This document shows positions 7,066 to 51,507 of a stretch of DNA of 64,000 nucleotides, in pieces. Within the stretch, counting starts at the first letter, position 1, and every line of letters begins with the position of its first letter. The stretch comes from a virus. The notes beneath the pieces are model-generated. The model worked only from the letters and a program-made list of their open reading frames with translations. It was not told the DNA's origin and searched no databases. The stretch lies in IMG/VR virus record IMGVR_UViG_3300025319_000005, positions 127,289 to 191,288 of that record; one strand, given 5' to 3'. A program made the position numbers and the translations under genes.

Positions 7066-9273
7066 TCAAAAATCAACAACATTATTATTGTCATTATGTG
7101 CAATATTTTGTAATTCCTGAACGTTGAAATTAAAATCCAACATTTCGTTTTCTATATGTTTTGCTTGTTGAATTGTTTCTGGCAATTTCAAATCATAACA
7201 ATTATTATATTCTTTTATTTCAAAGAATTTTTTAATAAAATCTTTTACTGAGTTAATTATTGTTTCGGTAGCTTTAGCATTATGTTTAGCTTTTAACTGA
7301 TTAAAAGTATATATTGTTTTTTTTGAACCATCAGAATCAATATTCGAATATTGTATATTTATACTAAGAGTAGCTCTATCCATAGTTTCTAAATCTTCAA
7401 CAGAATATATTACAAAACTTCCTTTTGCAACATTTGCACAATAAGTTTTAACACAATGACTCATTACTGATGATTCTTCATAAAATTTTTCCGGAGTATC
7501 AATTAAATTAAATTTGATATTATCAAAAATTCCTTCTGTATGTCTGAATTTATCTATGTGAATTTTTAAGTCTTCACTTAATTTTTTATCTGCAATCAAC
7601 CTAAAAGAAAGACTCAAAGAATTATGCATATCAACTAAAGCATCAAAAGTTTTTGATTTTAATATTTCAGTTAATTGAATCTCTACATTTATTAACATAA
7701 ATATAGTGTCCATATACAATTGAAGTATTTTTTCAAAATTAGCATCAGAGGTATGAAAGATTTTTAAAATATGGCAAAAATGTTTGTGGGTTATTTTAAA
7801 ATGTCCTATTCTGTTAATGCTTTGATTATACATATTTTGCACACAAACAATAAAGTCGTAAGCATCTTTTATATTATTATTTAATATTATTTTGTCAACT
7901 GTTTCAATTTCGTCAAAAGCAGAATTGTTATGTAAGAATCCATAAAACACTTGAGCAACTTCATCAAAATTTCTTTCTAAAAATAAGTCTACATAAAATT
8001 TTCTAAATTGTATATTTTTCAATCTCAATTTAATATCTTTATATATTGGAACCCTTGTGTCAACCTGTACTGTCGGATGAGTTGTTATTGAAAATAATAA
8101 ATCTTTTTTTTGGGGATGAGCTTTTAATTTTCTCTTTCTTTTTTTCTCTTCTGTTTTTATGTATTTAATTATTTTTGTATGTTTCGAAAATTCAGAAGTT
8201 ACTTTACTTTTAAACATAGTTTCCAAAATTGTTTTTGGATTGGTTGGATTTTTCTTTTTTAAGTTTGTCAAAGAACACACAAAAGAAGAATTTGTTAATA
8301 AATTAAGAAATTTATCCGGACCATAAGTAAGAATTAATGTCACGATGGGCTGATAAACTGAAAGTGACAACATTATACATAATCTTCTTTTTAAATATTG
8401 TATCCAAATATATCTGCTTGTAGACATATTTCCATTATAGTTACTGAGCGATTCTGGCTTATAATGACAATTATTTAAAAAAGATTCTTCACCACAATTA
8501 GTTGGAGAGCTACTTAAATTTCTAAATAAAGAATTCAAATACATTTCATCACGCTCTTTTTCTAATATTAAATTTATTCTATTAACATCCCTCTGGTCAC
8601 ATTTTGATTCTACTAGTTCACAAAATTTTATTAAAGGTTTTATTACCTGTCTTTCAAAAAGTCCTTGCGAAATTACATTTTCATATAATGCATTTAATGT
8701 CATATTGTTAACTATTGAAGAACAATGTTTAACAAGAAATCTAAACGGCACTGTAATTATTTTTTCCTTAATTTTTATCTTTATGGTATCGCTTTTTTTA
8801 GAAAGGTATAATGAACGATTACTAATATTCCTAAAAATCAATTTTTTTGTTGTAACAGAGACAAACACTATAGTTGCAAAAGAATATAAAGCATAAAAAT
8901 TTTCTTTTTCAACTACACCAAATCTTTTTGATGTAACATTTCCTTCTATTTCTTTAGAGTAAATTAACTTTACACCGGAAAGGGATTTGTACTCTTTACT
9001 GCAACTATTGCAAATTGTTTTTTGACTTGAAATTATTTTACCGTATCCATTTCTACTTATTGCTTCAAAAGGAATTTCAGTCATTTGACCACAAGTACAA
9101 TATAAAGCCCATCTTTTATTGGAATAATTGTTTTGAAAATGGCTGAATTCTTTTTTTACATTTGTTTCTGGTGTGCTTTCCACGTCATCAAAAGACGGAT
9201 TAGAAGAATCGTTATATTGTGGAGTCCTAACTAAATCAAATATAAGAGCAAGATATGGATTTTTTTCTTTCAA
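7066..9273 (-). CDS. Large protein with C-terminal PcfJ-like domain
   Basis: EESSVMSHCVKTY..IYSV..RATL..QLKAKHN. Confidence 0.7.
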   Translation of the reverse strand: MKEKNPYLALIFDLVRTPQYNDSSNPSFDDVESTPETNVKKEFSHFQNNYSNKRWALYCTCGQMTEIPFEAISRNGYGKIISSQKTICNSCSKEYKSLSGVKLIYSKEIEGNVTSKRFGVVEKENFYALYSFATIVFVSVTTKKLIFRNISNRSLYLSKKSDTIKIKIKEKIITVPFRFLVKHCSSIVNNMTLNALYENVISQGLFERQVIKPLIKFCELVESKCDQRDVNRINLILEKERDEMYLNSLFRNLSSSPTNCGEESFLNNCHYKPESLSNYNGNMSTSRYIWIQYLKRRLCIMLSLSVYQPIVTLILTYGPDKFLNLLTNSSFVCSLTNLKKKNPTNPKTILETMFKSKVTSEFSKHTKIIKYIKTEEKKRKRKLKAHPQKKDLLFSITTHPTVQVDTRVPIYKDIKLRLKNIQFRKFYVDLFLERNFDEVAQVFYGFLHNNSAFDEIETVDKIILNNNIKDAYDFIVCVQNMYNQSINRIGHFKITHKHFCHILKIFHTSDANFEKILQLYMDTIFMLINVEIQLTEILKSKTFDALVDMHNSLSLSFRLIADKKLSEDLKIHIDKFRHTEGIFDNIKFNLIDTPEKFYEESSVMSHCVKTYCANVAKGSFVIYSVEDLETMDRATLSINIQYSNIDSDGSKKTIYTFNQLKAKHNAKATETIINSVKDFIKKFFEIKEYNNCYDLKLPETIQQAKHIENEMLDFNFNVQELQNIAHNDNNNVVDF

Positions 9274-11861: not shown

Positions 11862-12008
11862 ATTCTTGTGATATTCAATCACATATTTTAATTTTTTCAA
11901 AATATATCATGAATCTTTTAAAATTTCATTCGTGAATAAAAATATATTACTTTCAGTATGTTTGCCTTAAAAGTTTTTTATTGCATATTTATAGTAAACA
12001 TACTTAAA

Positions 12009-12704
12009 ATGAAAACAGAAACAGAAAAAACAGAAGAGAAACAAAAAATCAAAGAATTGGTTGATAAGGGTTTAAAAAATAAAGAAATTGGGAAAATATT
12101 AGGAATGAAATATCGTACAGTTTGTTTTAAGTTAAGAGAATATAAATTAATTAGATATTCTAAACCGCAAATTTCTCAAGAAAAAATAGATGAAATGATT
12201 AGATTATATAATGAAGGATATAATTGTACCGAAATTTGTGAAAAAATAAATATAAGTAAAATTACAATTTCATTTATACTAAAGGAGAACGGAATCAAAA
12301 TAGTTAAACGAAGTGCTGATAGTAAACCAGAATTAAGATTATTAAGAGGTGAAAAATGTATAATTTGCGATAGAAACCTTGGACCATATGTTACAATATG
12401 TAGCACTTGTGTTTCTCAAGTTAGAAGGTATAAAATAAAGAAAAAAATGTTTGATTTTAAAGGTGGCAAATGTGAAGATTGTGGAGATGATAGTTTATGT
12501 GTGGATATTTATGATTTTCATCATTTAGATCCAGATGAAAAGGATTTTAATTTATCAAAAGTTTTAATAGACGGAAAATCTTGGGATGATATAGAAAAAG
12601 AATTAAAAAAATGCGCCTTACTCTGTTCTAATTGTCACAGAATTAGACATTCTGTTGAAAGAAAAAGTGAAAAATTTTGGAAATATATAAAATTAATTTC
12701 TTAA
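12009..12704 (+). CDS. HNH homing endonuclease with HTH N-terminus
   Basis: CEDCG..DFHHLDP..KCALLCSNCHR. Confidence 0.85.
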   Translation: MKTETEKTEEKQKIKELVDKGLKNKEIGKILGMKYRTVCFKLREYKLIRYSKPQISQEKIDEMIRLYNEGYNCTEICEKINISKITISFILKENGIKIVKRSADSKPELRLLRGEKCIICDRNLGPYVTICSTCVSQVRRYKIKKKMFDFKGGKCEDCGDDSLCVDIYDFHHLDPDEKDFNLSKVLIDGKSWDDIEKELKKCALLCSNCHRIRHSVERKSEKFWKYIKLIS

Positions 12705-12708
12705 AAAG

Positions 12709-12740
12709 AAAAGCTCCAGTAAAACAATTACTGGAGCTTT
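12709..12740. terminator. Bidirectional intrinsic terminator
   Basis: AAAGCTCCAGT..ACTGGAGCTTT hairpin between convergent units. Confidence 0.75.
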
Positions 12741-12745
12741 CACTG

Positions 12746-12862
12746 TGTTGATGGGGGGGATCGAACCAACCCGACTCATTTGCTTTCAGGAAATTGCTCT
12801 CACTTACTCCTTGCGAAGTAAAGGATTTGTCTTGCGAAAAACCACCACTGAGCTACATCAAC
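12746..12862 (-). ncRNA. tRNA-Phe(GAA)-like RNA with a large D-loop insertion
   Basis: Acceptor GTTGATG/CATCAAC; D stem GCTC/GAGC encloses GCAA-loop hairpins; anticodon loop CT-GAA-AG; GTTCGATC T-loop. Confidence 0.7.
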
Positions 12863-12885
12863 ATATTATTAAAGAACTAATTTTG

Positions 12886-12962
12886 TGTCGATTAGAGACT
12901 ACAAGTCCTCTCTTTTCTGGTTGTTCACACCAGCACTTTACGTGTACATAAGTTAAATCGAC
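12886..12962 (-). ncRNA. Non-canonical tRNA-like RNA, GAA in the anticodon position (copy 1)
   Basis: GTCGATT/AATCGAC acceptor; CTGGT-GTGAACA-ACCAG arm; AGAGA/TCTCT T-like arm. Confidence 0.7.
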
Positions 12963-12967
12963 ATATG

Positions 12968-13044
12968 TGTTGGTGAGAGACTACAAATCCGCTCTTATTC
13001 GGCTGTTCACACCGATACTTTATATGTGTATAAGTTACACCAAC
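12968..13044 (-). ncRNA. Non-canonical tRNA-like RNA, GAA in the anticodon position (copy 2)
   Basis: GTTGGTG/CACCAAC acceptor; TCGGT-GTGAACA-GCCGA arm; stems covary with copy 1. Confidence 0.7.
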
Positions 13045-13089
13045 ATATTTTATTTAAAAGAACTAAATCGTTTCAATTATTTAACGATA

Positions 13090-13097
13090 CAAAGATA
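13090..13097 (-). promoter_or_regulatory. Bacteroidota-type -7 promoter element (TATCTTTG)
   Basis: TAnnTTTG consensus about 45 nt upstream of the tRNA-like trio. Confidence 0.6.
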
Positions 13098-13181
13098 ATA
13101 ATATTTAAAACTTAAAACCAAATATTTTATAATAAAAATTTACCTATTTATTAAAAAGTTATTAACAATTCAAATACTACA

Positions 13182-13721
13182 ATGACTACAGAGGAAAAAA
13201 AATTAAGAATAGCTATAAGAAAATCATTAATGGAAATGGAAAACGTTTCTGAAAGCGATATTTTAACAAGAGCTGGAGTTAACTGGCAAGAGATGAAGCC
13301 TAAATTTTTAAAAACAGTTAAATGTCTTGTTTCAAAAATAGATGACGATAAATATAACGATGCAGAAGATTTAATAGGTAAAGCTATTGGTATGCTTAAA
13401 ATTTGGAAAGCAAAAATGAAAAAAGGAATAGGAATGGTTGATAGAACTTCGAATACTGAGACGTTGGATGAAATTGATATTACGGAAACTTTTGGTGGGA
13501 AATATGCTCTAGGAACTGGATATAAAAAAGATGAAATTGGCGATAAAAAATATCAAGGAAAACTTATTGATTATATTCTTTATAATCAAGGAAGAAACAC
13601 AGACCAAAGAGAGCCGACTGATAGAAAAATGTATTGCGGATATGATTTAGAACAATTATCTAATAAGGATTTACAAAAAATAAAGGATAACATGGAACAT
13701 CCAAGAGGAAGATACTGGTAA
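13182..13721 (+). CDS. Putative virion protein
   Basis: KLRIAIRKSLME N-terminal tag; CTATTTA upstream. Confidence 0.6.
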   Translation: MTTEEKKLRIAIRKSLMEMENVSESDILTRAGVNWQEMKPKFLKTVKCLVSKIDDDKYNDAEDLIGKAIGMLKIWKAKMKKGIGMVDRTSNTETLDEIDITETFGGKYALGTGYKKDEIGDKKYQGKLIDYILYNQGRNTDQREPTDRKMYCGYDLEQLSNKDLQKIKDNMEHPRGRYW

Positions 13722-15036: not shown

Positions 15037-15942
15037 TTACAATATATATCTATTCATTAGATTAGTTAAACTTGGATGGTGTTGCGTTATTATTTCCCAG
15101 TTTTTTTTAGATAAAGATTCGAAATCGCAATGCTTTGAGTATTTATCTGGATTGTGTATTAATAACGTTTCCCATCCCAATGCAGAGATTTTATATTTAT
15201 TTTCTTCTATTAAGTAATCTAAATGTGGAAATAATTGAACAATTTTTATAAGCAAAAAACAATCTCCTATTTGAAAAATGGATAAATCACAATGTTTTAA
15301 GAGTTCTGGTTTAGTAGTTAATATTTCTACCCAATCCAAAGCTTTTAATTTTTTTAAATCTAATTTATGTATATATTTTTCTCCGCTTTTTTTAATTAAA
15401 ACCCTAACAGCATAATGGTCAAGCGTTTCTAAATTCAATTTTTCTATTATTTCCGGAGTTTTATGGAAAGATTCAATTATTTTTCCAATTTCATGTTTAG
15501 AATACGTGTATTTACCCAAATCTATCTTTGGTAAGAAGCTAATGTTTATCTCGAGCATTTTTATAGCATCTATGGCCGACAAATTTTCATAATCCAAATC
15601 AAAGTATTCAATCATGTCCGGATGTACTATAAATATAGGAATAAGGTCTCTAAGAGTAAAATCATGCTTATTTAAATCCAATCGTTCAAGAATATATTTA
15701 TCCCTTACAATTAGTCTGATAAGCTTCATTTTATCTAATTTATCCCATTCGATAATATCTTTTATTCTTTCGTTTTTTAATAATGATTTATCATCTATAA
15801 AGTTGGGATTGATGAATTTCGATAACACTTTAAATATAGGTTCCGGCAAAATCCTGTAATCTATTAACGCAGCATAATGACATATTGCTTTTTTGATAAT
15901 TTCTCGTTTACTTTGTATGTCAGGAATTTTAACTGAACTCAT
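15037..15942 (-). CDS. Helical-repeat hypothetical protein
   Basis: Repeated L..L...W..I...P units. Confidence 0.65.
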   Translation of the reverse strand: MSSVKIPDIQSKREIIKKAICHYAALIDYRILPEPIFKVLSKFINPNFIDDKSLLKNERIKDIIEWDKLDKMKLIRLIVRDKYILERLDLNKHDFTLRDLIPIFIVHPDMIEYFDLDYENLSAIDAIKMLEINISFLPKIDLGKYTYSKHEIGKIIESFHKTPEIIEKLNLETLDHYAVRVLIKKSGEKYIHKLDLKKLKALDWVEILTTKPELLKHCDLSIFQIGDCFLLIKIVQLFPHLDYLIEENKYKISALGWETLLIHNPDKYSKHCDFESLSKKNWEIITQHHPSLTNLMNRYIL

Positions 15943-17440: not shown

Positions 17441-20022
17441 TGTTTTTTTGTTTTTAATTTATATGCCTCAAGTAGTTTTTTTGATATTATTTTTCTAATA
17501 ACATAACTTTCTTTCATTAAAACTTTTCCAAATTCTTCCCATTTAAATGCTTTAATTTCAAGCCAATCAGTTGTTTTTTTATTACCACCCATAACTTTTA
17601 TTCTTGAATTAGCAATTCCGTTTATGATTTCGGGGTCAACATCCATTATGCTGTATTTATATCCTTTTTGTAATGCAAAATATCTACTGTCATTTTCTTT
17701 AACATCTCTGTCTAAGAATTCAACGAAATCACCAACTTCAATATTATATTTAGAGCTTGAGAATCCACTTATTAATTTTTCATATTCACCAAATCCAATT
17801 CTCGAGATAATTTCATCTCTGTTGATTACAATATCTTCTTTGGATTTTTCTTTAGATGTAAAATCAGTTAAAAAATCATAATATTTTCTATAAACAACTA
17901 AAGAAATATTTGAAGTATTTCCTTTAAAAGATTTTAAAGAAAATACTTCAAATATTTCTTTAGATTCTTCTATTTTTTCTTTGCTCTCACCAGCAATTTC
18001 TAACATTGTAACATAATCTTTCAATACTGTATATAGCATGTCTGGACTATCTGCAGAATAAGATTCTGGCTTATCTACTTTATAAAGTTTGGCGAAAAAA
18101 TTAATAATAATTTTTGCTACTTGAGGGTCTCTTATATCTTCTAAATCAAATTTAATATAAGGTTTATCTGCCTCTTCTTTTCCGTACTTAGTAAGAATTC
18201 CTCTATTAAACATTCTATAGAATTCAAATATCCCAGGAAGATGAACGCCTCTTAAAATATTATATTTAGTAACATGAGACGGGTCATCATAATATCTTAT
18301 AAATCTTTCTTTTTCAGCCTTTAAATTTCTTTGTATTTCTTGAGGATTTGATTCCTTAAATAAAAGTCTTAAAAAATTTATTTCTTTTCTTTCTGAATCT
18401 CCTTCAATTTTTGATTTTATAAATTCTTCATTTTTTTTAAGTAAATCTCTTCTTTCTTTTTGAGGTAATAAAGAAAGTTGGTCACCCAATTCAAATTCAG
18501 CATCAGATTCAGTTCTTGTTCCATCTGGAGCTACTTTTACATCTTTTTTCTGTGCTATGATTTTTCCTTCCGGAGTCTTTCTTAAAAATTTATGTTTATC
18601 AGATTTTGGCATTTCTAAAAAACTCATCATTTTGTTGATACCAACAGTTCCTCCACCAAACGCATCAGACATAACTGGGAAATAATTATCTAATATAGAT
18701 TTAAAAATTTCTTTATATGATTTAGCTTCTTTAGAATTAACATTAGAAAGTTTCTTTAACAATTTTTCAAAATCATCTTTCTTTGTTGTAATATAATTTT
18801 GTAAATTAACATGCTCAAACATTTTTTTAAAATCTTCTGCAGGTAAAAAATCTAATAAAAAATTAACTTTAGAAAGAATTAAATTTGGTTTTCTCTTTGA
18901 TAGTTCGGGTATATGAATAGAGAGCTCTTGAAGTGATTGATTAAATGTTATTGATTTAGAGTAACTATCAATATTTTCAATGAATTTCTCTGGACCAAAT
19001 TTCTTTAATGCTTCCAATGCATCTAAACTTCTGTTTTCGAACCATTCTTTTCCTTCTTTATTCGATATTATATATGGTTTACTATTTTCTACAAAATCTG
19101 GCCTTAACAAATCCAATCTATTAAAAATATCAAATTTTTTATTATCAAATGCCCAAGAAAAAGTATATGAGTCAGTTGTTTTCTCTATTGTTTGTTTTGC
19201 AACTGGAGTCCCTAAAAATTCAACTAATTTTTCAAACAAGTCATCCCATCCATAGAGATTGGTTCCAACCGGTTGATTTCCAACTTGCTTACTTTCAACC
19301 ATAATTTTTGTAGTAGTAACTATAGATAAAGACATTAATGTACTAATTGGAACTTTTGTTCCTTTTTCCGGTCCAAGTAAAGTATAAGTAGTTCTGCTAT
19401 ATTTTCTATGTTCATCATGCATCATACCATTATGCTTGCTTTGGCAGCCAACTCCAAAAGCTTTATTTGCATCGCAGAGTCTGTCAAAAAATTCACCCGC
19501 TCTTTGCGTATCAACTTTTACCCAAACACGACCTGAGCCGTCCGGTATTGTGTAAACTCTTTTAACAAGACCTTCTTCTTCAACTTTTGTTATGGGTGGT
19601 TCTGGAAATTCTTCTGCGGTCTTTTGAGAAATTTCTTTTTTATTTTTTTCTTCTATTTTTTTCTTTGAAAATTCGTAAGCTGTATTTAAGTCCATTTTTG
19701 GTAAATTACCTTCACTTCCGGCAATTTTAAACCAGGACATAACTGTGACCAATTTTTCTATATCTCCTGTTCCAAAATTCTCAATACCTCCCAAAACAGT
19801 AATTTGTTCAATAATCCACTTTACCATTTTTTTATTAATGACAGCTACATTTTGTTCGCCACCAAACGCTCTGAAATATATATGTTCTACAAAATCAAGA
19901 ATTCTTTCATCGGTTTTAGGCAATCCTTTAGCTCCAATTAAAAAATCTTTTTTCCAGTCAGCACTAACTTCTGTAATTAATCCACACTCAATAAGAAATG
20001 GTTTTATGCTTGGTTTTTTCAT
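17437..20022 (-). CDS. Large putative virion protein
   Basis: 861 aa; CTATTTA upstream; C-terminal ESYVIRKIISKKLLE. Confidence 0.65.
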   Translation of the reverse strand: MKKPSIKPFLIECGLITEVSADWKKDFLIGAKGLPKTDERILDFVEHIYFRAFGGEQNVAVINKKMVKWIIEQITVLGGIENFGTGDIEKLVTVMSWFKIAGSEGNLPKMDLNTAYEFSKKKIEEKNKKEISQKTAEEFPEPPITKVEEEGLVKRVYTIPDGSGRVWVKVDTQRAGEFFDRLCDANKAFGVGCQSKHNGMMHDEHRKYSRTTYTLLGPEKGTKVPISTLMSLSIVTTTKIMVESKQVGNQPVGTNLYGWDDLFEKLVEFLGTPVAKQTIEKTTDSYTFSWAFDNKKFDIFNRLDLLRPDFVENSKPYIISNKEGKEWFENRSLDALEALKKFGPEKFIENIDSYSKSITFNQSLQELSIHIPELSKRKPNLILSKVNFLLDFLPAEDFKKMFEHVNLQNYITTKKDDFEKLLKKLSNVNSKEAKSYKEIFKSILDNYFPVMSDAFGGGTVGINKMMSFLEMPKSDKHKFLRKTPEGKIIAQKKDVKVAPDGTRTESDAEFELGDQLSLLPQKERRDLLKKNEEFIKSKIEGDSERKEINFLRLLFKESNPQEIQRNLKAEKERFIRYYDDPSHVTKYNILRGVHLPGIFEFYRMFNRGILTKYGKEEADKPYIKFDLEDIRDPQVAKIIINFFAKLYKVDKPESYSADSPDMLYTVLKDYVTMLEIAGESKEKIEESKEIFEVFSLKSFKGNTSNISLVVYRKYYDFLTDFTSKEKSKEDIVINRDEIISRIGFGEYEKLISGFSSSKYNIEVGDFVEFLDRDVKENDSRYFALQKGYKYSIMDVDPEIINGIANSRIKVMGGNKKTTDWLEIKAFKWEEFGKVLMKESYVIRKIISKKLLEAYKLKTKKQ

Positions 20023-22041: not shown

Positions 22042-23076
22042 TTATCTAATTTCAACATTAAGACGCTCAATTGAGGTGAATTTTATATTTTCTTGGATTT
22101 CATTTATTTCTGTATTTGTTAAAGTGCGATCATTTGATTGAAAAACTATTCTATAACACTTAGATTGTTTACCTGTTTTTGGGTGAGCAAATTCATCTAT
22201 TAATGAAACATTTTCTATTAAATCGCCTCCATTTTCTCTCACAATTTCACAAAAATTATTATGAGCGAAATTAGTATCTGCCCAAAATGCCAAATCTCTG
22301 GATATTGGTGGATAACTTGAGTATTCCTTAAATTTAACTACATCTCCAGAAATAAATTGATTTATAAATCTTTCATCAGACGACCAAAAGTAACGTATGT
22401 CTGGTATTTCAAATAAGAGGATAGACAATCTTTCCAAACCTAATCCAAAAGCAAATGCAGCTTTATTTTCTAAACCACAATTTTCCATAATTTTAGGTTG
22501 AACAACCCCTGCACCAAGAACCTCTAACCATTTTCCCTGAAACATAACTTCAACTTCAAAAGATGGATGTGTAAAAGGAAAATAATCTTCATTGAAGCGG
22601 TATTCACAATTTGGAAAAAGAACATCAATAAGACCTTTTAATGTTTTTTTAAGTTCTTCTTCTGCGTTTTTTCCATCTTCAATTACACATACACCTTCCA
22701 TTTGGTGAAAAACCGGATAATGAGAGCTGTCAATATCATCTTTCCGATACACATCACCTGTAACTAAAAATTTTGTATGACCAGCAGTTAATAATTCATT
22801 TTGGTGAGCCGATGTATGGGTTCGTAATATATGATTCTCATCAAAATAATAAGTATCACTCAATGAACGTGCAGGATGATCTTTTGGAATAAGTAGTTTA
22901 TCAAAACAATTTTCAGTTGTAACCTTTGGATTTAAATCATCAAATTTTTTATATTCATCTCCAAAGTAATCATAGATTTTTCTTTTAATAATTTCTAAAG
23001 GATGATTTTTTTGATTGTGTAAATTTCTGCCAATTTTAGCTTGGATTCCGGGGGTAATGTTTGATTTAAATTCCAT
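22042..23076 (-). CDS. pheS: Single-chain (mitochondrial-type) phenylalanyl-tRNA synthetase
   Basis: HPAR..DTYY, LRTHTSAHQ, HYPVFHQMEG, FPFTHPSFE, AFGLGLERL, plus C-terminal FDX-ACB domain (YPPISRDLAF..TLTNTEIN). Confidence 0.92.
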   Translation of the reverse strand: MEFKSNITPGIQAKIGRNLHNQKNHPLEIIKRKIYDYFGDEYKKFDDLNPKVTTENCFDKLLIPKDHPARSLSDTYYFDENHILRTHTSAHQNELLTAGHTKFLVTGDVYRKDDIDSSHYPVFHQMEGVCVIEDGKNAEEELKKTLKGLIDVLFPNCEYRFNEDYFPFTHPSFEVEVMFQGKWLEVLGAGVVQPKIMENCGLENKAAFAFGLGLERLSILLFEIPDIRYFWSSDERFINQFISGDVVKFKEYSSYPPISRDLAFWADTNFAHNNFCEIVRENGGDLIENVSLIDEFAHPKTGKQSKCYRIVFQSNDRTLTNTEINEIQENIKFTSIERLNVEIR

Positions 23077-23163: not shown

Positions 23164-23832
23164 TTAATCAAATTTCATATTCATTAGTTCTAACAATTCC
23201 TTGTCCATACTGTCAGAATATCCTGAGCTAAAAATGGCAAATTCCGTTATTAATTTTAAATATTTTGGAGACGGTTCTCCATTTGCCTTGCCCTTAGTCT
23301 GAATTGCCATTCCGGTATGAGTATCAATCTCAATTGTTACATGCGACTCATTCTTTTCGTCTCGTAAAGAAACTATTAACGAATTGCCTTGTTTCACTTT
23401 GGTAGTATATGTTCCTACGCAGTTTCTCATTGTTTCGCCTTCTGTTGCTAAATCTTCCACGTCCAAAAGAACAAAATAATGTATTCCATCACGGCATCTA
23501 TATAATATTTTATCATCCTCTTCTTTTTCTTTATTTTTAATAGTTTCATCAAATTTCATGTCGTCATGCCATACTTGTGCCAGTACATAAGCCTCCAAAA
23601 AAGATAAAGATAAGATATTTGGCTTTTCTTTTTTTGCCCAATCTATTATAAATAAAAATCCATCAAGATTATTCAGAAGAGTATCATCTTTCTTTACTTG
23701 ACCTCCAATCCAAATATTAAATTTGTCAGTTCCGGATAAACGTCCGATTTCACTTATTTTTCTAACAAGCTCCTCATCAATTTTGAAGTTATCTAAGAGA
23801 TATTTTTCTTTCTTTGTTAATTGCTCTGCCAT
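23164..23832 (-). CDS. PcfJ-like domain protein
   Basis: EGETMRNCVGTY..SLRD..HVTIE..QTKGKAN. Confidence 0.75.
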   Translation of the reverse strand: MAEQLTKKEKYLLDNFKIDEELVRKISEIGRLSGTDKFNIWIGGQVKKDDTLLNNLDGFLFIIDWAKKEKPNILSLSFLEAYVLAQVWHDDMKFDETIKNKEKEEDDKILYRCRDGIHYFVLLDVEDLATEGETMRNCVGTYTTKVKQGNSLIVSLRDEKNESHVTIEIDTHTGMAIQTKGKANGEPSPKYLKLITEFAIFSSGYSDSMDKELLELMNMKFD

Positions 23833-35173: not shown

Positions 35174-37285
35174 TTACAAATTATCATTATTATTTTGTAA
35201 ATTCCTTATGAATTCAATAGGATTAACTCCTCCCAAATCTTCAATACGTTGAATGTTTTGAATGAAATTATCTAAATTTAATTCAGATTCATTTCCTCTC
35301 GAAGTAGAAAGTCTTAAATCTGCAAGCTCTTTATAAGAAATTTCTTTTTCTTGTAAAAATTCCATTATATTAGTTTTAAATCGGTCAGAACCTTGTCTAT
35401 TGCAAGTTGCTTTAACTTGGTCAAATTCTAATTTTCCATATTTATCAGCTTTCAATCCAAGCATAAATTTTTCAGGTTCCCCTCCCTCTCTTTTTTCGTC
35501 AATATCTTCTACTATGCATAACACATATTGAGAATTAGAAACTCTATTTACATATGAGCCGGCACAATTTTTCATGTCCTGCGAAGCCTTAAGGAGTAAT
35601 TCTGGTGTTCTTATCAATCTTACTTTTAAGTTTTTTTCATATTCTTCAAGAATTTTATATTGTGAAACAAAACTTACAAATTCTTTATTTTTAGCATCAT
35701 TAGAAAGTAAATTAAAATGGTCAATTAATTTATTATGATATTCTTCTAATTCCTCTATTTTTTTTATTTTGTGGAATTCTTTATTTGAATCCCAGTTGAG
35801 CGCTCTAATCATTCTAAGACTATCGTCGTAACTCGTCAAATCAAAACTCTTCAATAAAGTATAATCTAAAGGTATTTTTGACAATTCTTCCTCATTTACT
35901 TCTTGAATTTGTTCTGTGTCTTTAATTAAAAATCTTTCTCTGGCATATTTCAATTCAGTATTAGTTTTATTAAAAGAAAATAGTTTTTTTCTTTCTAAAG
36001 AACTTAAGGCCAACGAAATTATTTGATTAATTTTAAGCATATTCATATCTGCTCTAAATTCTAAGCTATACCATAAATTAACTAATAAATTAACATTATT
36101 TTTTTTAACAAGTTCTATAAGTTCATTAAATGAAATGAATTTAGTATATTTTATTAAAATTTTATAATCAGAAAATCTTTCTATTATATTAAAAACATAT
36201 GGGGAAACACTTTTTTCTTTTATGTCTTCACGCAAAAATCTTTCACCATCTTTATTTTTTCCTGTTTGATTTTCATTGTTGTTAAATCTGGAAGCATCAA
36301 ACTTAAACGTTACCTCTCTTCCGCTTTCAGCCTTAAATACATAACCCATTTTTTCAGAATCATAAGCATCTAATTCTTTGCTTATTTCTTCGTTTTTATA
36401 ATTTACAAGATAATTGAAAATTTTAAGAGGAGATGTTGCTCCATTATCTGATAACTCTTGTGGATTAGGAAGTTTGCAATCATTCATCATATCAAAAAGA
36501 AATATAGTTCCTTTTGTTAATGCTATTGTAGATAAGTTTGAATAGCAAATTATTCCAAAAAATATTGAGGCTACTTTTATAATAATGTCCAGTCCTGATT
36601 TACCGACCATTTGACTCATTAATTCATCTATTATATTTATGTTCTGTGAATCGGATACAAAATTAGCCATTCTATTTATAAATAAATGAACATCAAATAA
36701 TCGTTCAGTTGTCTTTACTTCTCCATAAAGAAAAAACTCTAAAACAATTGACATCACCCTATCAAGATTAAATTCAATTTCTTCCTTGCTGAAATCTTTA
36801 AAATAAAGTTTTTTGGCAGTTTTATCAAATTTTATCCAAGATAAACTTTCATTTAATTCTAAAGAAGGTTCATCTTTTGAAATGACGAAAGGCATTGACC
36901 TTTTTTTATCAAAATTTATTTTTGCTATAAATCTTTGTTTTATTAATTTAACATCATTTTCATCTTCATAAAAACAATATGACTCAAAAAATTGTTTTTC
37001 ACATTCTTGAATAATTCCAGCCGTTTCCTTAGTTGAATAATCTGTATCGCATTTTTCGCATTTAAGAGAAAATCTGGCCATACTATTCTCATCGAATAAA
37101 CCTGTAATATCACCTATATCAGCTCCTTCTTTTATACTTACTTTCATTTCTGAGGCTACGACCTTTCTATCTTGTTTGATTAAATGGCCACATTTACAAA
37201 AAAATAAATCTGTATCATTTTTTGCGTCATCATAATGAAAAGTAAACTTATTTAATATTTCTTCTTCTTTGATTAATTCTCTCAT
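35174..37285 (-). CDS. Large PcfJ-like domain protein
   Basis: N-terminal FCKCG..CEKC; C-terminal MKNCAGSY..QVKATCN; paralog of 7066-9273. Confidence 0.7.
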   Translation of the reverse strand: MRELIKEEEILNKFTFHYDDAKNDTDLFFCKCGHLIKQDRKVVASEMKVSIKEGADIGDITGLFDENSMARFSLKCEKCDTDYSTKETAGIIQECEKQFFESYCFYEDENDVKLIKQRFIAKINFDKKRSMPFVISKDEPSLELNESLSWIKFDKTAKKLYFKDFSKEEIEFNLDRVMSIVLEFFLYGEVKTTERLFDVHLFINRMANFVSDSQNINIIDELMSQMVGKSGLDIIIKVASIFFGIICYSNLSTIALTKGTIFLFDMMNDCKLPNPQELSDNGATSPLKIFNYLVNYKNEEISKELDAYDSEKMGYVFKAESGREVTFKFDASRFNNNENQTGKNKDGERFLREDIKEKSVSPYVFNIIERFSDYKILIKYTKFISFNELIELVKKNNVNLLVNLWYSLEFRADMNMLKINQIISLALSSLERKKLFSFNKTNTELKYARERFLIKDTEQIQEVNEEELSKIPLDYTLLKSFDLTSYDDSLRMIRALNWDSNKEFHKIKKIEELEEYHNKLIDHFNLLSNDAKNKEFVSFVSQYKILEEYEKNLKVRLIRTPELLLKASQDMKNCAGSYVNRVSNSQYVLCIVEDIDEKREGGEPEKFMLGLKADKYGKLEFDQVKATCNRQGSDRFKTNIMEFLQEKEISYKELADLRLSTSRGNESELNLDNFIQNIQRIEDLGGVNPIEFIRNLQNNNDNL

Positions 37286-45566: not shown

Positions 45567-45645
45567 TACCTTCAATAGGATTCGAACCTACATTTTCAGC
45601 TCCGTTACACTTATTGAGTCCGTAGCTCAATGTGGCTATAAAGGC
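45567..45645 (-). tRNA. Atypical tRNA-Arg(ACG) lacking a D arm
   Basis: Acceptor GCCTTTA/TGAAGGT; ATTGAG-CTACGGA-CTCAAT; GTAGG-TTCGAAT-CCTAT. Confidence 0.65.
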
Positions 45646-46333: not shown

Positions 46334-46390
46334 AATTCTAACTTATTTTAATGTAAATAGGTTAGAATTTTTTAATAAAGTAAATAGTTG

Positions 46391-46466
46391 AGGATAAGAA
46401 GAGAATTAAACTCCTGTTAAATATGTTTTGCAGACATATCCCGATTTCAACATTGGGTACTTATCC
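46391..46466 (-). tRNA. tRNA-Cys(GCA)
   Basis: GGATAAG/CTTATCC; CT-GCA-AA; U discriminator. Confidence 0.85.
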
Positions 46467-46480
46467 TTGTAAAAATTAAA

Positions 46481-46750
46481 AAAGTAAAATCCTAAGTATA
46501 GCCGCGATTTTGTTCTATCTCATCATTTATCTGAAGGTATTGCTACCAACTGGAGACTTTAAACGTCTACCACGCACCTACCCGACTATCAACAACGTAA
46601 AGGTTCCCCGTCTACAGTCTGTTTGGCTTGCATCCTATGTTGCGGAAGTACATACGCTATTTGTTATAGCTTCTTCCTCCTTTTAAAAGATGTCGCGAAC
46701 TTCCTCTCGATTTTAAGAATCGAGCGATGAGTCCTTCAGGATTTTACTTT
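46481..46750 (-). ncRNA. rnpB: RNase P RNA (compact)
   Basis: P1 AAAGTAAAATCCT/AGGATTTTACTTT; CR-I-like GAGAGGAAGTTCGCG; CR-V-like AGAACAAAATCGCGGCTATA. Confidence 0.85.
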
Positions 46751-46755
46751 TCTTG

Positions 46756-46827
46756 AGGCTCCACTGACAATCGATGTCAGGACTCAAATTTACAAGATTC
46801 GTGTTTTGCCACTTAAACTACGGAGCC
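46756..46827 (-). tRNA. tRNA-Thr(TGT)
   Basis: Cloverleaf with CT-TGT-AA. Confidence 0.9.
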
Positions 46828-46843
46828 ATTATTTGTTCTTATG

Positions 46844-46917
46844 TGGAATCTACCGGCATTGAACCGGTCTCTCAGGCGTGCAAGGCAAGTGTTCTAAGCC
46901 AAATGAACTAAGACCCC
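46844..46917 (-). tRNA. tRNA-Ala(TGC)
   Basis: GGGGTCT/AGATTCC with G3:U70; CT-TGC-AC. Confidence 0.88.
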
Positions 46918-46955
46918 AATTTAATTTGTTCAAAGTACAAATTATTAAAAACTTT

Positions 46956-47031
46956 TGGCGAGTATGACCGGTCCTGACCCGGCGACCTCCTCATAGACAG
47001 TGAGGCATTCTTCCAACTGAACTACACACTC
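46956..47031 (-). tRNA. tRNA-Asp(GTC)
   Basis: Cloverleaf with encoded GCCA end. Confidence 0.9.
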
Positions 47032-47043
47032 ATTATTTTTTAA

Positions 47044-47352
47044 AAAAGTAAGACGCCATTTCGCTGATAGCGTTTTTTGTGTTCTGTTTAATGCGCCAAA
47101 GAACATCTGATTATGTTCAGCATTTAGCGTTCATGCTTGGTTATTATAACATACTAACATTCCTAATATTGTCTGATTACCTATTTTGAGTTTGCATAGT
47201 AGGTTGATTTTTATTTCCAGGGTAAAAATCAACAAACAAACCTAACGTCTGATAAACTTTATTTTTCATCCGGTAAACGTTTTGTACATTGTTTAGTTCA
47301 TTAGGCTAAAACAACACGTCTTTTTCACGGACAACATTAGTAACTTACTTTT
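47044..47352 (-). ncRNA. Unassigned structured RNA of about 300 nt
   Basis: Closing stem AAAAGTAAG/CTTACTTTT; long-range CTAATGTTGTC/GACAATATTAG; several hairpins; no ORF of 60 aa or more. Confidence 0.6.
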
Positions 47353-47356
47353 CTTG

Positions 47357-47430
47357 TAGTGCATCTGAGAATTGAACTCAGTACTTCCACGTTATCGGCG
47401 TGGCACTCTGGACCGATGAGTTAATGCACT
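47357..47430 (-). tRNA. tRNA-Ile(GAT)
   Basis: Cloverleaf with CC-GAT-AA loop. Confidence 0.9.
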
Positions 47431-47444
47431 GTTTTTATTTAAAG

Positions 47445-47517
47445 TCTAGGTGGCCTGCTCCGACCAGGCGGTCTCCAGTTCCCAAAACTGGCGGATTTCC
47501 AACTTTCCCACACCTAG
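47445..47517 (-). tRNA. tRNA-Pro(TGG)
   Basis: CTAGGTG/CACCTAG; TT-TGG-GA. Confidence 0.9.
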
Positions 47518-47555
47518 AAATTTTGTTTATCTTTCCAAACTGTCTTTTAATAAGA

Positions 47556-47618
47556 GTTCAAGCTCGGTTATCCACCGATTCGAAGGACTGCATTAGCCTT
47601 CTCTGCAGACACTTGAAC
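47556..47618 (-). ncRNA. Small three-stem RNA with a possible pseudoknot
   Basis: GTTCAAG/CTTGAAC, CTGCA/TGCAG, TCGGT/ACCGA stems; GAAGG/CCTTC. Confidence 0.5.
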
Positions 47619-47620
47619 AT

Positions 47621-47696
47621 TGGAGCGAAAAACCAGGTTCAAACTGGCGACCCCCAGAGTGGAAATCTGGCGCTCTATCAACTGAGCTATTTTCGC
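47621..47696 (-). tRNA. tRNA-Gly(TCC)
   Basis: Cloverleaf with TCCA end. Confidence 0.92.
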
Positions 47697-47785
47697 TTAT
47701 GTATATAATTCTCTCAGACCATATTACCAAGATTTACTTTGGACTCACCGTATTTTAAAAGTGAGCAGAATTGTATTTAATTAAA

Positions 47786-48733
47786 TTATTCTAATAATAA
47801 TTCATCAATTGTTAAAATTGAATTTAAATTATCTATTGTTTTTTTAAATATCATTTTAACATTAATGTTGTTTTGTTCTAATACTAAACTCATTTTTGTT
47901 TTATCTATTATTGAATAATATCCTTTAGTTTCTATGTATAAGTTAAAATTTGGCAAATAAAAATCTGGCACATACGTTTTTTCAACACCTTCTTTAATAT
48001 ATTGAATATATATTTTTCTAATCCACAATATTTTATTGTCATTTAACCATTGCGACATTTTTAATTCATATTTTCCTCTTAAAGAATATTCTTCACCAAT
48101 AATATTTTTTTGTTTATAAAATTTCACATGTTTAAAATTGTTACTTATTTCATTTTCTTCTAACATCTTGGAGTGAGATTTGCTAATTTTCGATTTTTGT
48201 TCAGAAGAAAGTGGCTTTCCTAATTGGTGATGTATTCTCTTACCAGTAGCATACATTTCTTTTTGTTGCTCAGATGCTTTATTTACCCTATTATCAGTTT
48301 CCTTTGTAAGTCCTCTTGACCATCCCATTTTTGATTTAGTCTCTGCATTACTGTATTTTTTATTTTTATATTCAACTCCATCCGGTGTATGCATTTGAAA
48401 TATATGACCACATATACCAAGTTTGTGAAATATTAATTCGCAATGAGGACATTTATATTTATCTACATCAACTTTCCAAGATTCATCTACTGTTATTTGT
48501 TTTTTATTAACTGTATTACATTTATTATAATGCCTTTCAAAATTAGAAACAGAAATATTTTTATTACATTTATCACAACATTTTGTGTTTTTAGGTTTTC
48601 CAAGTAAAGAAATACTTAAATTTTTTAATCTTTCTTTTAACTTTGGATTAGATTCACAATTTACTATATGAGCACCAAATTGTTGTGGGATCTCAAACTC
48701 AAAAGACTCTTTGCAATGCGGACAAGTTTTCAT
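47786..48733 (-). CDS. Homing endonuclease-like protein (Zn fingers, NUMOD3-like, PD-(D/E)XK)
   Basis: GWSRGLTKETD; YVPDFYLP..IETKG. Confidence 0.8.
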   Translation of the reverse strand: MKTCPHCKESFEFEIPQQFGAHIVNCESNPKLKERLKNLSISLLGKPKNTKCCDKCNKNISVSNFERHYNKCNTVNKKQITVDESWKVDVDKYKCPHCELIFHKLGICGHIFQMHTPDGVEYKNKKYSNAETKSKMGWSRGLTKETDNRVNKASEQQKEMYATGKRIHHQLGKPLSSEQKSKISKSHSKMLEENEISNNFKHVKFYKQKNIIGEEYSLRGKYELKMSQWLNDNKILWIRKIYIQYIKEGVEKTYVPDFYLPNFNLYIETKGYYSIIDKTKMSLVLEQNNINVKMIFKKTIDNLNSILTIDELLLE

Positions 48734-48802
48734 ACTTTTTTATTATAAATAGTATAAAAAATTGCAGGTTAGAAAATTGTTAGCACGTTATTGTTTTTTG
48801 AG

Positions 48803-48885
48803 TGGGAGTTGATGGAGACGAGCCACCCGAGTTTTAAAACAACCGATTTACAGTCGGTCCCGCTACCCCTACGGAATAAACTCCC
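48803..48885 (-). tRNA. tRNA-Tyr(GTA)
   Basis: CT-GTA-AA with long variable arm. Confidence 0.88.
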
Positions 48886-48897
48886 ATTTTAATGTTG

Positions 48898-48969
48898 CAC
48901 AGACGGTTATAATCGAAATAACTACGTGTAGTTTTTGGAGAACTCACCGACACCAAGCCTGTCGTCTGT
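48898..48969 (-). tRNA. tRNA-Trp(CCA)
   Basis: ACAGACG/CGTCTGT; CT-CCA-AA; G discriminator. Confidence 0.8.
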
Positions 48970-49008
48970 ATTTTATCTATTTTTTAAGCTGTAAGATAAT
49001 TAGCTAAG

Positions 49009-49080
49009 TAGCGAAAACTGGAATCGAACCAATGTAGACACAGCTTATGAGACTGGTGGGAAACCAACATCCTTTTCGCA
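49009..49080 (-). tRNA. tRNA-Met(CAT), initiator-like
   Basis: CT-CAT-AA; 1:72 mismatch. Confidence 0.75.
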
Positions 49081-49093
49081 ATATATTTTTTTG

Positions 49094-49166
49094 TAGCCCC
49101 TGCCGGTCCTGACCCGACGACTTCATTCATGTAAAAAATGCACTCTACCAACTGAGTTAAGGGGCT
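49094..49166 (-). tRNA. tRNA-Val(TAC)
   Basis: Cloverleaf with TT-TAC-AT. Confidence 0.9.
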
Positions 49167-49171
49167 ATTAG

Positions 49172-49245
49172 TAGCATATATCAGAATCAAACTGATGACC
49201 TTCCTCATATGAAAAGGACGCTCTAATCAACTGAGCTAATATGCT
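49172..49245 (-). tRNA. tRNA with CAT anticodon (Met elongator or Ile2)
   Basis: Cloverleaf with TT-CAT-AT. Confidence 0.88.
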
Positions 49246-49255
49246 ATTTAAAAAG

Positions 49256-49327
49256 AGCGGGTGATGAGGATTAAACTCACGGCCTCATCCTTGGCAAGGA
49301 TGCGCTCTATCGCTGAGCTACACCCGC
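49256..49327 (-). tRNA. tRNA-Gly(GCC)
   Basis: GCGGGTG/CACCCGC; TT-GCC-AA. Confidence 0.92.
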
Positions 49328-49400
49328 TTTTTTGATTATCAATATGTCAAATAACTCTGCAAACTTTTAAGTCATTGCTCGACTTGTAAACTTTTTAAGC

Positions 49401-49433
49401 AACAAAAAACCCGAACCTTTTTTAAGTCCGGGT
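49401..49433 (-). terminator. Attenuator terminator of tRNA operon 1
   Basis: ACCCGGAC..GTTCGGGT followed by TTTTTGTT. Confidence 0.85.
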
Positions 49434-49472
49434 GTGTTATGTTGTTTCCCTTTTAAGTTTTTATATCTTACT

Positions 49473-49601
49473 TCATGAAACAAAATGTTTTAACACACCC
49501 ATATTATCGCGGCTATAATCGCCAGGGGTAATACACGCATACCCGACTGTCGGCATGACTGCCCAAATCGTTGTAATTGTTGTATGTGTTAAATTTTTCA
49601 T
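49473..49601 (-). CDS. Leader peptide of tRNA operon 1 (42 aa)
   Basis: MKNLTHTTITTIWAVMPTVGYACITPGDYSRDNMGVLKHFVS*; contains antiterminator strand GGGTGTGTTA. Confidence 0.8.
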   Translation of the reverse strand: MKNLTHTTITTIWAVMPTVGYACITPGDYSRDNMGVLKHFVS

Positions 49602-49624
49602 TGAAGATGTTTTCTTTTTAATTA

Positions 49625-49740
49625 AACTTAAATAGTATAAAAAATTATTTTCTCAAATATTTCTTTCGACCAATTATAACGCAAAGATATAATTAAAGTT
49701 TAATAAAAAGCAAATTTATTTTCATTTATTTTTTATTTAA
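49625..49740 (-). promoter_or_regulatory. Promoter block of tRNA operon 1 (TTTG..TATCTTTG plus CTATTTA)
   Basis: Near-duplicate at about 57995-58110. Confidence 0.75.
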
Positions 49741-49913
49741 CTTGTAAAATCCTGATATTCAGCTAAATAATTTTTTGTAAAATCCTAAACATAATCGTAA
49801 AATCCTGTCATTGATAATATTAAACAAAAAATCCACAATTTTTTTAAGCAAGGGAGCCAACGAATTTATTCGTTGGAGTATGTCAGTCAATAATATTTCC
49901 TTGCAATTTGTTT

Positions 49914-50117
49914 TTACCAACCTTCTTTAGCAACTCCGGATGCAACTGCAGCTTCTGCGTTAGCAGAGCTCATTATAGCACACATTTTATGTCCTTCTTT
50001 AGTTTCTCCTTTACATACGTATCCACCTTTTGCGTTTTTAGATATGATAGGATTAACGAAAGTTTGTTTGCTTTTTAATTTCATACAATATCCTTCTAAT
50101 ACGATTAATGTGCTCAT
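49914..50117 (-). CDS. DUF5679-like small protein
   Basis: GYCMKLKSK..G.HKM; paralog of 51512-51712. Confidence 0.65.
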   Translation of the reverse strand: MSTLIVLEGYCMKLKSKQTFVNPIISKNAKGGYVCKGETKEGHKMCAIMSSANAEAAVASGVAKEGW

Positions 50118-50221
50118 GATTTTTAGTTTTAAGTTTTTTATAAATATGAAATATTTTATAAAACAAGTTTTAATATATGTTTATGTTCTAAATTAGCTTA
50201 TATTTATATAAAAACAAGCTC

Positions 50222-50975
50222 ATGAAAAATTTAAAAAAAATAATAGAAGAAACAGTAAGTAAAGTTCTGGGTGAAGGCGATTTTTTAACACATCAAATAA
50301 AAAATTCAATAAGCGTGTTAAATAATGTTTTCAAAGACAACTTAGTTGCAAAGATAAACGAAACAAATGATAAAGATAAACGAAACAAATGATAGTGTTA
50401 TTGATGTTTATATTAAGAAATACAATATAAATGCATTAACAAAAATAGATAAAACGATAGAAAATTTAGGATATTTTATTTCTATTTTTAGTATAAATGG
50501 ATTTCAAAAGAAATTTAACAAAGATTCATTTTTTAAAAAAATAAAAGACTTAAAAGAATTAACTCCAATATACCTAAAGCTGGAGAAAAAAATGGACTCA
50601 AATGAAGATATAGATACAATTATCCCATCTATGTTATATCACATTACACATGAAAGACATCTCGCAAAAATCAAGAAAATAGGTTTAGTTCCAAAATCTA
50701 AATCTAAAAAATCAGCTCATCCTGAAAGAATATATTTAGCGTGGAATGAAGAATCTGCTATAAAATTAGTAAAAGAATTTTCAGATTTAGAATACGAATT
50801 TGAACATAATTATGTTTTATTAAAAATTGACACAAGTAAAATTTCTGAGTTTAGACGTGATAAAAATTTCAAATTACATAATGACCCAAACTTTACAGAT
50901 GGTTATTTTACATATGATAATATACCTCCTGCTGCAATAAATTTTGAAAATATGAAATTAATAAACCTTGAATAA
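50222..50975 (+). pseudogene. ART/Tpt1-fold protein interrupted by a 22-bp tandem duplication
   Basis: LYHIT..IKKIGLVPK..RIYLA..IPP motifs; AAGATAAACGAAACAAATGATA x2 at 50351-50394. Confidence 0.6.
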
Positions 50976-51507
50976 TATGAGTTTGTTAGAAAAAATTAAA
51001 ATAGAAAGATTTATTTCGGAAGATATTGACGAAGTTAAACAGTTAATTAAAAACATACATTCAAAAATCTGTTTTAATGAAACAAATATTCACATTTATA
51101 ATAATTTAATGTATAAACTTTTTTTTAACGGTTATAGTTTTCTTTTGGATTTTTCATTAAAAGTAACATATAGAAAAAAAATAATAGGAGTTATGTTATT
51201 ATCTGACTTTTCGTTTTATTGGCTATTAGAAACATATAAAGAAGATGACAAAAACATAAGCAAAAAAATAAAAAAATATAAGAACAAAGAAGGTTTAAGG
51301 AGTGTTTTTTTTGGAATTGATAGGAAATATCAAAAAAAAGGATTAGGCTCTAAAATGATTGAATATATACAAAAAAACTATAAGCAGTTTGATTATTTGT
51401 GGGGAATTCAACATAAAGAGATTTCAAATATGGAATTTTTCTTAAAAAGAAGAAAAGTTGTTGCAGAAATAGGAAATTCCGTATATACTGTGCAGGATTT
51501 GAAATAA
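50968..51507 (+). CDS. GNAT acetyltransferase
   Basis: IDRKYQKKGLGSKMI. Confidence 0.75.
   Translation: MNNMSLLEKIKIERFISEDIDEVKQLIKNIHSKICFNETNIHIYNNLMYKLFFNGYSFLLDFSLKVTYRKKIIGVMLLSDFSFYWLLETYKEDDKNISKKIKKYKNKEGLRSVFFGIDRKYQKKGLGSKMIEYIQKNYKQFDYLWGIQHKEISNMEFFLKRRKVVAEIGNSVYTVQDLK

Follow-up and report, generated by a model that had tools for sequence, protein, structure and literature searches.

In staphylococci, the non-proteogenic tRNA-Gly species NP1-3 act as donors for FmhB, FemA and FemB (PMC7826273). A selC* tRNA-Cys of the class with an A51a bulge functioned in translation in E. coli (PMC5389517). Some phages encode tRNAs whose anticodon loops are altered, and evasion of anticodon nucleases through these changes was proposed (PMC10264068). 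Moreover, the Mom protein of phage Mu is a GNAT enzyme that takes glycine from charged tRNA for DNA modification (PMC13219725). Mitochondrial phenylalanyl-tRNA synthetase (PheRS) reads G1-C72, A73, C74 and the anticodon, position 20 being out of its reach, and E. coli PheRS additionally needs U20 and U59 (PMC9976931). Binding of a tRNA by EF-Tu is set by the T-stem pairs 49-65, 50-64 and 51-63 (PMC3239215).

We analysed a window of 64,000 nt belonging to a 212.6-kb virus record (G000) that is a T4-like jumbo phage. Three tRNA-Phe(GAA)-like RNAs, named A, B and C, lie on the minus strand at positions 12746-13044, and their status as genuine conserved RNA genes was confirmed. These RNAs are neither selC*/allo-tRNAs nor canonical tRNA-Phe. 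Like the staphylococcal tRNA-Gly species, they are extra isoacceptors beside an ordinary one, have an altered T loop, keep the cognate anticodon and are predicted to escape EF-Tu; unlike them, they correspond to Phe, are phage-encoded, come with their own synthetase and carry a T-stem insert instead of weak base pairs, and no Fem-like gene was found. The phage RNAs are predicted to work like non-proteogenic tRNAs. With selC* tRNA-Cys and its partners CysRS* and SelB* the locus shares a non-canonical tRNA, a bulge near position 51 and a dedicated synthetase gene. It differs from selC* and allo-tRNAs by 7/5 stems (not 8/4 or 9/3), a variable region of 4-6 nt and a sense GAA anticodon, and from selC* also by inserts of up to 49 nt and by the lack of an elongation-factor gene: a search for EF-Tu/SelB (PF00009) matched none of five phage records, one of them complete, but 14 of 14 controls. 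The nuclease-evading phage tRNAs are likewise phage genes with changed anticodon loops; however, they keep a normal body and use host synthetases, whereas the present RNAs carry T-stem and D-loop inserts.

Two relatives were central to the comparison, a complete phage genome of 519 kb (G001) and a further member of the clade, 87% complete (G002). A Pfam scan of G001 identified T4-like capsid, portal and sheath genes, and this genome also encodes TonB-receptor and Por-tail proteins, many synthetases, a CCA enzyme, Clp proteins and RNA ligases. The TonB-receptor and Por-tail genes suggest that its host belongs to the Bacteroidota. Contigs from four public DNA runs (three studies) showed no differing letter over the parts of the RNA locus that they covered.

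RNA A (77 nt, short type; 12968-13044, minus strand) and its paralogue RNA B (77 nt; 12886-12962, minus strand) have their GAA anticodons at 13008-13006 and 12926-12924, respectively, both with G32 and C37; RNA A has the T loop UUUGUAG and no encoded CCA. They are 77% identical and spaced by 82 nt (the 77 nt being counted through the discriminator), and tandem duplication is evident. A preliminary description, made from the sequence of the window, had presented A and B as cloverleaf repeats that lack the D-loop GG and the T-loop UUC, and this can indeed be read in the sequence. It had also called their anticodon loop, GU-GAA-CA, invariant, which holds between A and B but not across the family, where the loop reads C/G-U-GAA-C/A-A. 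RNA C (117 nt, long type; 12746-12862, minus strand) has its GAA at 12787-12785 within the loop CU-GAA-AG, a C31.C39 mismatch, G38 and the T loop UUCGAUC, and it keeps both GG and UUC. Its D loop is enlarged to 50 nt (12849-12800) and contains GCAA-capped hairpins, as previously described; there are two of them, and the centroid structure has the second only. All three RNAs start with G and have A73, again as described, together with U33 and GAA.

The T-stem carries the shared mark of the family, an insert that the preliminary description had overlooked. RNA A has a one-base bulge at 12991, after position 50, and RNA C a UU bulge at 12769-12768. RNA B can be drawn with a one-base bulge at 12909/12908 or with a contiguous stem and an 8-nt loop, and the bulge-free T-stem is lower in energy (-17.1 vs -13.5 kcal/mol). 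None of the three was detected by ARAGORN or by the Rfam tRNA model RF00005, and Rfam gave no credible match up to an E value of 10 over 12600-13200, Y RNA/YrlA and tmRNA included; three relatives of A, B and C in G001 do score as Rfam tRNA (41-44 bits). Whichever reading of their function holds, the family is partly missed by standard annotation. A cloverleaf scan found three cloverleaves in the real 400 nt, and a single one in 1 of 300 dinucleotide shuffles. Folded singly, the sequences gave weak structures (z of -1.1 to -2.1) whose minimum-energy form is not the cloverleaf, so that the assignment of the cloverleaf rests on covariation.

The genes form a stand-alone unit with its own promoter and terminator, in line with the preliminary description: all three are on the minus strand, between a promoter motif and a terminator. 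The promoter region (13090-13122, minus strand) comprises TTTG at 13122-13119 and TATCTTTG at 13097-13090, an arrangement which we take to be a Bacteroidota-type promoter. A motif search located GTTCTTT, presumably a boxA-like element, at 13057-13063 (minus strand); the motif recurs at 12877-12871, ahead of RNA C. Among 20 distinct family loci, TAnnTTTG occurred at most 130 nt upstream in 19 and GTTCTTT upstream in 17; random windows of the genomes had these motifs in 10% and 3% of cases, respectively, a contrast that is overstated by the mostly coding nature of these background windows. Downstream, an intrinsic terminator hairpin of 14 bp (12709-12741, minus strand; z of -7.5) faces a convergent gene of HTH and HNH type (11958-12704) that ends at the terminator. 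This gene had no match in any related locus and is likely a recent mobile insertion.

We then looked at the distribution of the RNAs. A search with PheRS yielded 5 syntenic phage loci among 23; the DNA reached the RNA site in 4 of these, and all 4 had GAA tRNA-like genes. A conserved uncharacterised protein of about 300 aa (15037-15939, minus strand) served as a synteny marker and led to 38 loci, partly redundant (some represent closely related strains or a contig shared by two collections), with 1-5 RNA copies in 28; where the downstream flank extended for 1.3 kb or more, 24 of 26 loci carried 1-5 copies. Of the ten loci without RNA, eight break off after no more than about 1 kb, and in two of these eight the contig edge falls in a copy; the others have a transposon-like insertion (L061) or a weak marker match (L062). 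Homologues of a small divergent gene (13182-13721, plus strand) adjoin the RNA cluster in relatives, and the flanking small protein as the sole query retrieved none. BLAST of the RNA locus against annotated phages gave short matches only. The single match of a first DNA pattern scan was discarded as a chance occurrence in a coding region. Also set aside were 65-nt repeats of G000 (C1:31.7-32.5 kb) that have a few bases in common with the D loops but look coding and unrelated. A model (R1), which is poor on short types, gave high scores over 22 other virus records only for the two training members. Near the PheRS genes of other viruses, GAA tRNAs looked ordinary among the 30 loci listed.

In total, the family comprises 41 distinct RNAs. 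The scan that defined them presupposed GAA, U33 and G1, and we therefore repeated it blindly, with no requirement for the anticodon, G1, U33 or A73, over 726,595 bases. Of the 39 distinct cloverleaves that it returned, 35 had a bulge in the T-stem, and GAA/G1-C72/A73 was present in 34 of these 35. The compensatory stem changes that had been noticed between A and B extend to the family alignments, where covariation is seen in the acceptor, anticodon and T stems: 14 of 21 pairs change on both sides among 8 RNAs of the A/B type, and 12 of 21 among 17 RNAs of the C type, with 1-6 for slid controls, the shuffle controls taking no account of relatedness. The 7-bp acceptor, 4-bp D and 5-bp anticodon stems hold in the family, apart from pair 31-39, which is unpaired in 10 of 41 RNAs including RNA C. 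GAA, G1-C72 and A73 are kept, acceptor pairs 2-7 vary, and 30 of 41 RNAs have no encoded CCA. Homologues preserve both GAA and the stems, and they lie near the monomeric pheS, a gene present in 14 of the 38 marker loci within the 6 kb examined upstream. GG and UUC are found in 21 and 23 of the 41 RNAs, respectively. Their absence, used earlier as an argument for non-canonical RNAs, is true of A and B but carries little weight, UUC being absent from 9 of 21 other tRNAs of G000.

The weak single-sequence folding and the evident tandem duplication would be expected if these were decaying tRNA-Phe duplicates or RNAs that merely tune the phage PheRS. We consider this highly improbable: compensatory changes affect the acceptor, anticodon and T stems, the inserts contain paired hairpins of their own, the promoter motif is conserved, and the family is retained although the PheRS of the phages diverge by as much as 46%.

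All 41 RNAs can be parsed with an insert on the 5' side of the T-stem, after position 50 (20 RNAs), 51 (20) or 52 (1). It measures 1-3 nt in 26 RNAs (a single base in 10) and 23-49 nt in the other 15, as in L004:17358-17477, and the long inserts mostly fold as two hairpins. Long inserts are the sole type in the G002 clade; RNA C and its closest relatives have their extra hairpins in the D loop and not in the T-stem. No RNA of the 41 reaches five contiguous T-stem pairs with a 7-nt loop, RNA B reaching five with an 8-nt loop. An anticodon-blind scan of four phage records found 31 contiguous and 7 bulged T-stems, and all 7 bulged ones belonged to GAA cloverleaves. By a cruder count based on ARAGORN, five contiguous pairs were present in 20 of 21 tRNAs of G000 and 41 of 49 of G001, the shortfalls being single mismatches, parser register slips and one doubtful call. 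When the T-stem pairs were scored without the insert, the predicted EF-Tu affinity was ordinary (-0.5 to +0.7 kcal/mol). Because the place of the insert is fixed while its size and sequence are free, the pattern fits a role in blocking. No tRNA-like architecture in which one or two hairpins interrupt the T-stem was found in the main texts of the openly accessible literature, and the accessible parts of reviews on non-canonical tRNAs (PMC7609411, PMC10424219) and jumbo phages (PMC7824862) contain no such RNAs.

The anticodon arm is also unusual: C37 occurs in 33 of 41 RNAs and G32 in 6, and G32, C37, G38 or an unpaired 31-39 is found in 40 of 41. By comparison, G32, C37 and an unpaired 31-39 were each seen in 0 of 71 other tRNAs, two of which have U37. 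C37 does occur in ordinary tRNA-Phe of other phages, one of which (G022) is complete and has no PheRS. Accordingly, C37 together with the loss of UUC was rejected as proof of a non-ribosomal role, both being present in otherwise ordinary tRNAs. The tRNAs of G000 that lack UUC and the many tRNAs of G001 with extra variable-arm hairpins indicate that remodelling is general in these phages. The preliminary description had mentioned a PheRS and a normal tRNA-Phe in the window. Both are present, but the latter (57725-57801, minus strand, main tRNA cluster), although of ordinary type with a contiguous T-stem, carries G37 and a variable region of 9 nt. Ordinary tRNA-Phe genes are located elsewhere in the genome in G000 (one) and G001 (two), and none was seen in G002 at 87% completeness.

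The PheRS of the window (22042-23076, minus strand; 344 aa) was identified by domain and structure-relative searches as a monomeric enzyme of mitochondrial type, with the catalytic domain (PF01409) and a C-terminal FDX-ACB domain in one chain. In these phages, the gene for this enzyme lies 6-10 kb from the RNA cluster. Among solved relatives, human mitochondrial PheRS matched with an E value of 3e-103 and the best bacterial alpha chain with 5e-45; identity to Tupanvirus PheRS is 60%, and the motifs YRKD...HYPVFHQMEG, FPFT and FGLGLER are conserved in 60 homologues. The protein resembles human FARS2 (PDB 8P8X/3CMQ/3TUP) and Tupanvirus PheRS in having the catalytic and FDX-ACB domains in one chain; it differs from them in being encoded by a tailed bacteriophage and paired with remodelled RNAs, its activity being predicted. 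BLAST against annotated phages found no mitochondrial-type PheRS. The bases conserved in the RNAs are the identity set of a mitochondrial-type PheRS, a match that gives good support to the earlier suggestion of special substrates for the phage enzyme. Among the other tRNAs, 8 of 21 in G000 and 9 of 49 in G001 combine G1-C72 with A73. From 16 translation, RNA-repair and Clp genes of G001, G002 shares PheRS and the CCA enzyme only, the latter being encoded by both genomes; a further class II synthetase-like domain occurs in G002. The RNA family offers a testable reason for a mitochondria-type PheRS as a phage core gene.

In our best reading, which we hold tentatively, the locus would encode a private PheRS/tRNA pair that supplies ribosome-excluded Phe-tRNA to a transferase. 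One transcript would very probably be trimmed and receive CCA from the phage enzyme, and the phage PheRS would probably charge the RNAs with Phe, with host PheRS charging them poorly. Somewhat less surely, the T-stem insert would break the 49-65/50-64/51-63 stretch and so keep the RNAs off EF-Tu and the ribosome. The weakest step is the last one, in which free Phe-RNA might feed a transferase, PcfJ being the candidate, and the RNAs might serve as donors rather than decoys, with DNA, protein or a sugar as the possible acceptor. If they are donors, this would represent a new tRNA-dependent phage chemistry, and a natural PheRS/tRNA pair ignored by the host enzyme, if true, would be useful for genetic-code engineering.

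The same T-stem could instead belong to an armoured but translating tRNA-Phe, which by its odd anticodon arm, T loop and inserts would escape host tRNA nucleases and would decode Phe codons during infection; host PheRS would no longer read such RNAs, and the phage would bring an elbow-blind PheRS of its own. We regard this strong rival, which the preliminary description did not include, as only slightly less probable than our best reading. The 7/5 stems, the 7-nt loop and the ordinary EF-Tu pairs are retained, and one-base bulges need not block EF-Tu, given that a tRNA of the 51a-bulge class functioned in translation in E. coli. In addition to the proposed evasion of anticodon nucleases by phage tRNAs, a Schlafen protein of bacteria cleaves tRNAs in the T loop, at UUC (PMC13462974), human SAMD9 cuts tRNA-Phe (PMC10246899), and Avs9 is a bacterial SAMD9 look-alike with no known substrate (10.1101/2025.05.19.654893). 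A graded series also leads from ordinary tRNA-Phe to C37 with an intact T-stem (L105 and the first gene of L114) and on to C37 with a D-loop hairpin and a bulge (second gene of L114), and no other tRNA-Phe was seen in G002. However, the 23-49 nt inserts, present in 15 of 41 RNAs and exclusive in the G002 clade, are hard to reconcile with translation; G32 and an unpaired 31-39 have no counterpart among the 71 other tRNAs; extra hairpins of other tRNAs in these phages are placed in the variable arm and in 0 of 31 cases in the T-stem; and the five records encode no phage elongation factor. If the RNAs do translate, EF-Tu and the ribosome would tolerate far larger T-stem changes than assumed, and the RNAs would point to an unrecognised defence targeting tRNA-Phe.

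The T-stem evidence is equally compatible with a donor and with a decoy. Charged or not, RNAs kept off EF-Tu could act as free decoys or inhibitors that absorb a host defence directed at tRNA-Phe or Phe-tRNA, such as a nuclease or an acetylating toxin, and their altered loop would make them hard to cut; decoys were among the options of the preliminary description. The copy number, which reaches 5 per locus with often near-identical copies (L041), would suit such a role, as would the conserved promoter and boxA-like motif and the existence in these phages of other stand-alone Phe-derived RNAs that keep GAA yet look non-decoding. We nevertheless consider decoys the less probable of the two close rivals: likeness to the target would be expected, yet the anticodon loop deviates in 40 of 41 RNAs, the conservation of G1-C72/A73 and the synteny with pheS need charging to matter, and a bacterial defence enzyme specific for tRNA-Phe was not found in the literature searched.

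Returning to the private PheRS/tRNA pair, we examined which protein could take Phe from the charged RNAs. Directly upstream of pheS lies a gene for a PcfJ-domain protein of 222 aa (23164-23832, minus strand) with a truncated GNAT fold in residues 105-207. The structural model (pLDDT 89) had HAT1 as its best GNAT match (Z 8.1, rmsd 3.6, 102 aligned residues), and MprF gave Z 6.1; the structural matches were nearly all acyl-CoA enzymes, and Z values near 8 are common. Conserved residues of the protein include Cys138, His164 and Glu131. By sequence, the PcfJ core had no solved relative. Of 24 pheS loci, 5 have an orthologue beside pheS or at most 3 kb from it, and these 5 belong to this clade; the common order of pheS, PcfJ and RNA genes may stem from ancestry alone. 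The model indicates a fold but no function, and PcfJ is a weak candidate for the transferase of Phe. Mom provides a precedent for a phage GNAT with a charged tRNA as donor, although it uses ordinary host tRNA-Gly, and PcfJ is a different, truncated GNAT.

Known transferases were searched for as well. Aat was absent from 4 of 4 records, CDPS and Fem-like GNAT proteins from 5 of 5, and the Mom family (PF25680) matched 0 of 5 records but also 0 of 14 control genomes; an approximate Mom-like motif, a weak probe, had no match in the proteins and loci examined. Neither a Pfam scan of 349 of the 745 ORFs of G001 and 80 G002-specific ORFs nor a PHROGs scan of 50 core proteins detected an aminoacyl-tRNA transferase. 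The T-stem insert and the GNAT fold encoded next to pheS lend weight to the previous proposal of aminoacyl donors, but the searches detected none of the known transferases. The most specific form of this proposal, in which a PcfJ-type GNAT adds Phe to phage DNA or proteins by way of PheRS, the CCA enzyme and EF-Tu-excluded mimics, appears rather unlikely to us. If true, the virus would encode an orthogonal synthetase/tRNA pair that serves non-ribosomal chemistry, and the PcfJ family would gain a function.

Several further observations were made in these genomes. The window has four PcfJ-domain genes (7066-9273, 23164-23832, 35174-37285 and 62434-63168), and the family is expanded in G001 too. 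Several short synthetase genes consisting of the catalytic domain only are present in G001 and G002 (L084:1106-1747, L067:11905-12582, L087:10322-10909, L073:7546-8283 and L090:18654-19481). Moreover, G001 carries counter-defence genes, namely Acb3, Tad3, NAD synthase, nicotinate phosphoribosyltransferase, RtcB and RNA ligases (L080:1232-2053, L076:8859-9479, L072:6717-8558, L073:10916-12130 and L073:6141-7532).

Far from pheS, G001 has a fourth family member (L063:18245-18341); it is of the long D-loop type, and a single base bulges from its T-stem. On a contig with phage-like content from a bacterial bin (L114:1340-1581), a C37 tRNA-Phe with a normal T-stem adjoins a family member, and this gene pair is a possible intermediate. 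C37 was also seen in otherwise ordinary tRNA-Phe of seven bacterial genome bins (L110-L113, L115, L116 and L109), three of them Bacteroidales. Stand-alone genes derived from tRNA-Phe, with GAA and a normal T-stem, are found in G000 with C33 (C1:73045-73119 and 85424-85497; L149:447-520 and L150:426-498) and in G001 with 8-nt anticodon loops (L063:4818-4891 and 17799-17872); from their loops, they are unlikely to decode. A structured leader common to G000 and G001 (L150:500-560, L063:4750-4817), with no Rfam match, lies directly upstream of one of these genes and is possibly a separate small RNA freed by tRNA processing. In another tRNA-like gene of G001 (L064:17497-17585) the anticodon arm is enlarged and irregular, and the window contains a weak Rfam tRNA match of 34.6 bits at 45567-45645 that ARAGORN did not call. 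Finally, in the main clusters (window 46390-57801; L080, L084), tRNA-Asp has U37 and tRNA-Ile has C33, and several class I tRNAs, those for Lys, Glu, Asn, His, Trp and Thr, carry long variable arms.
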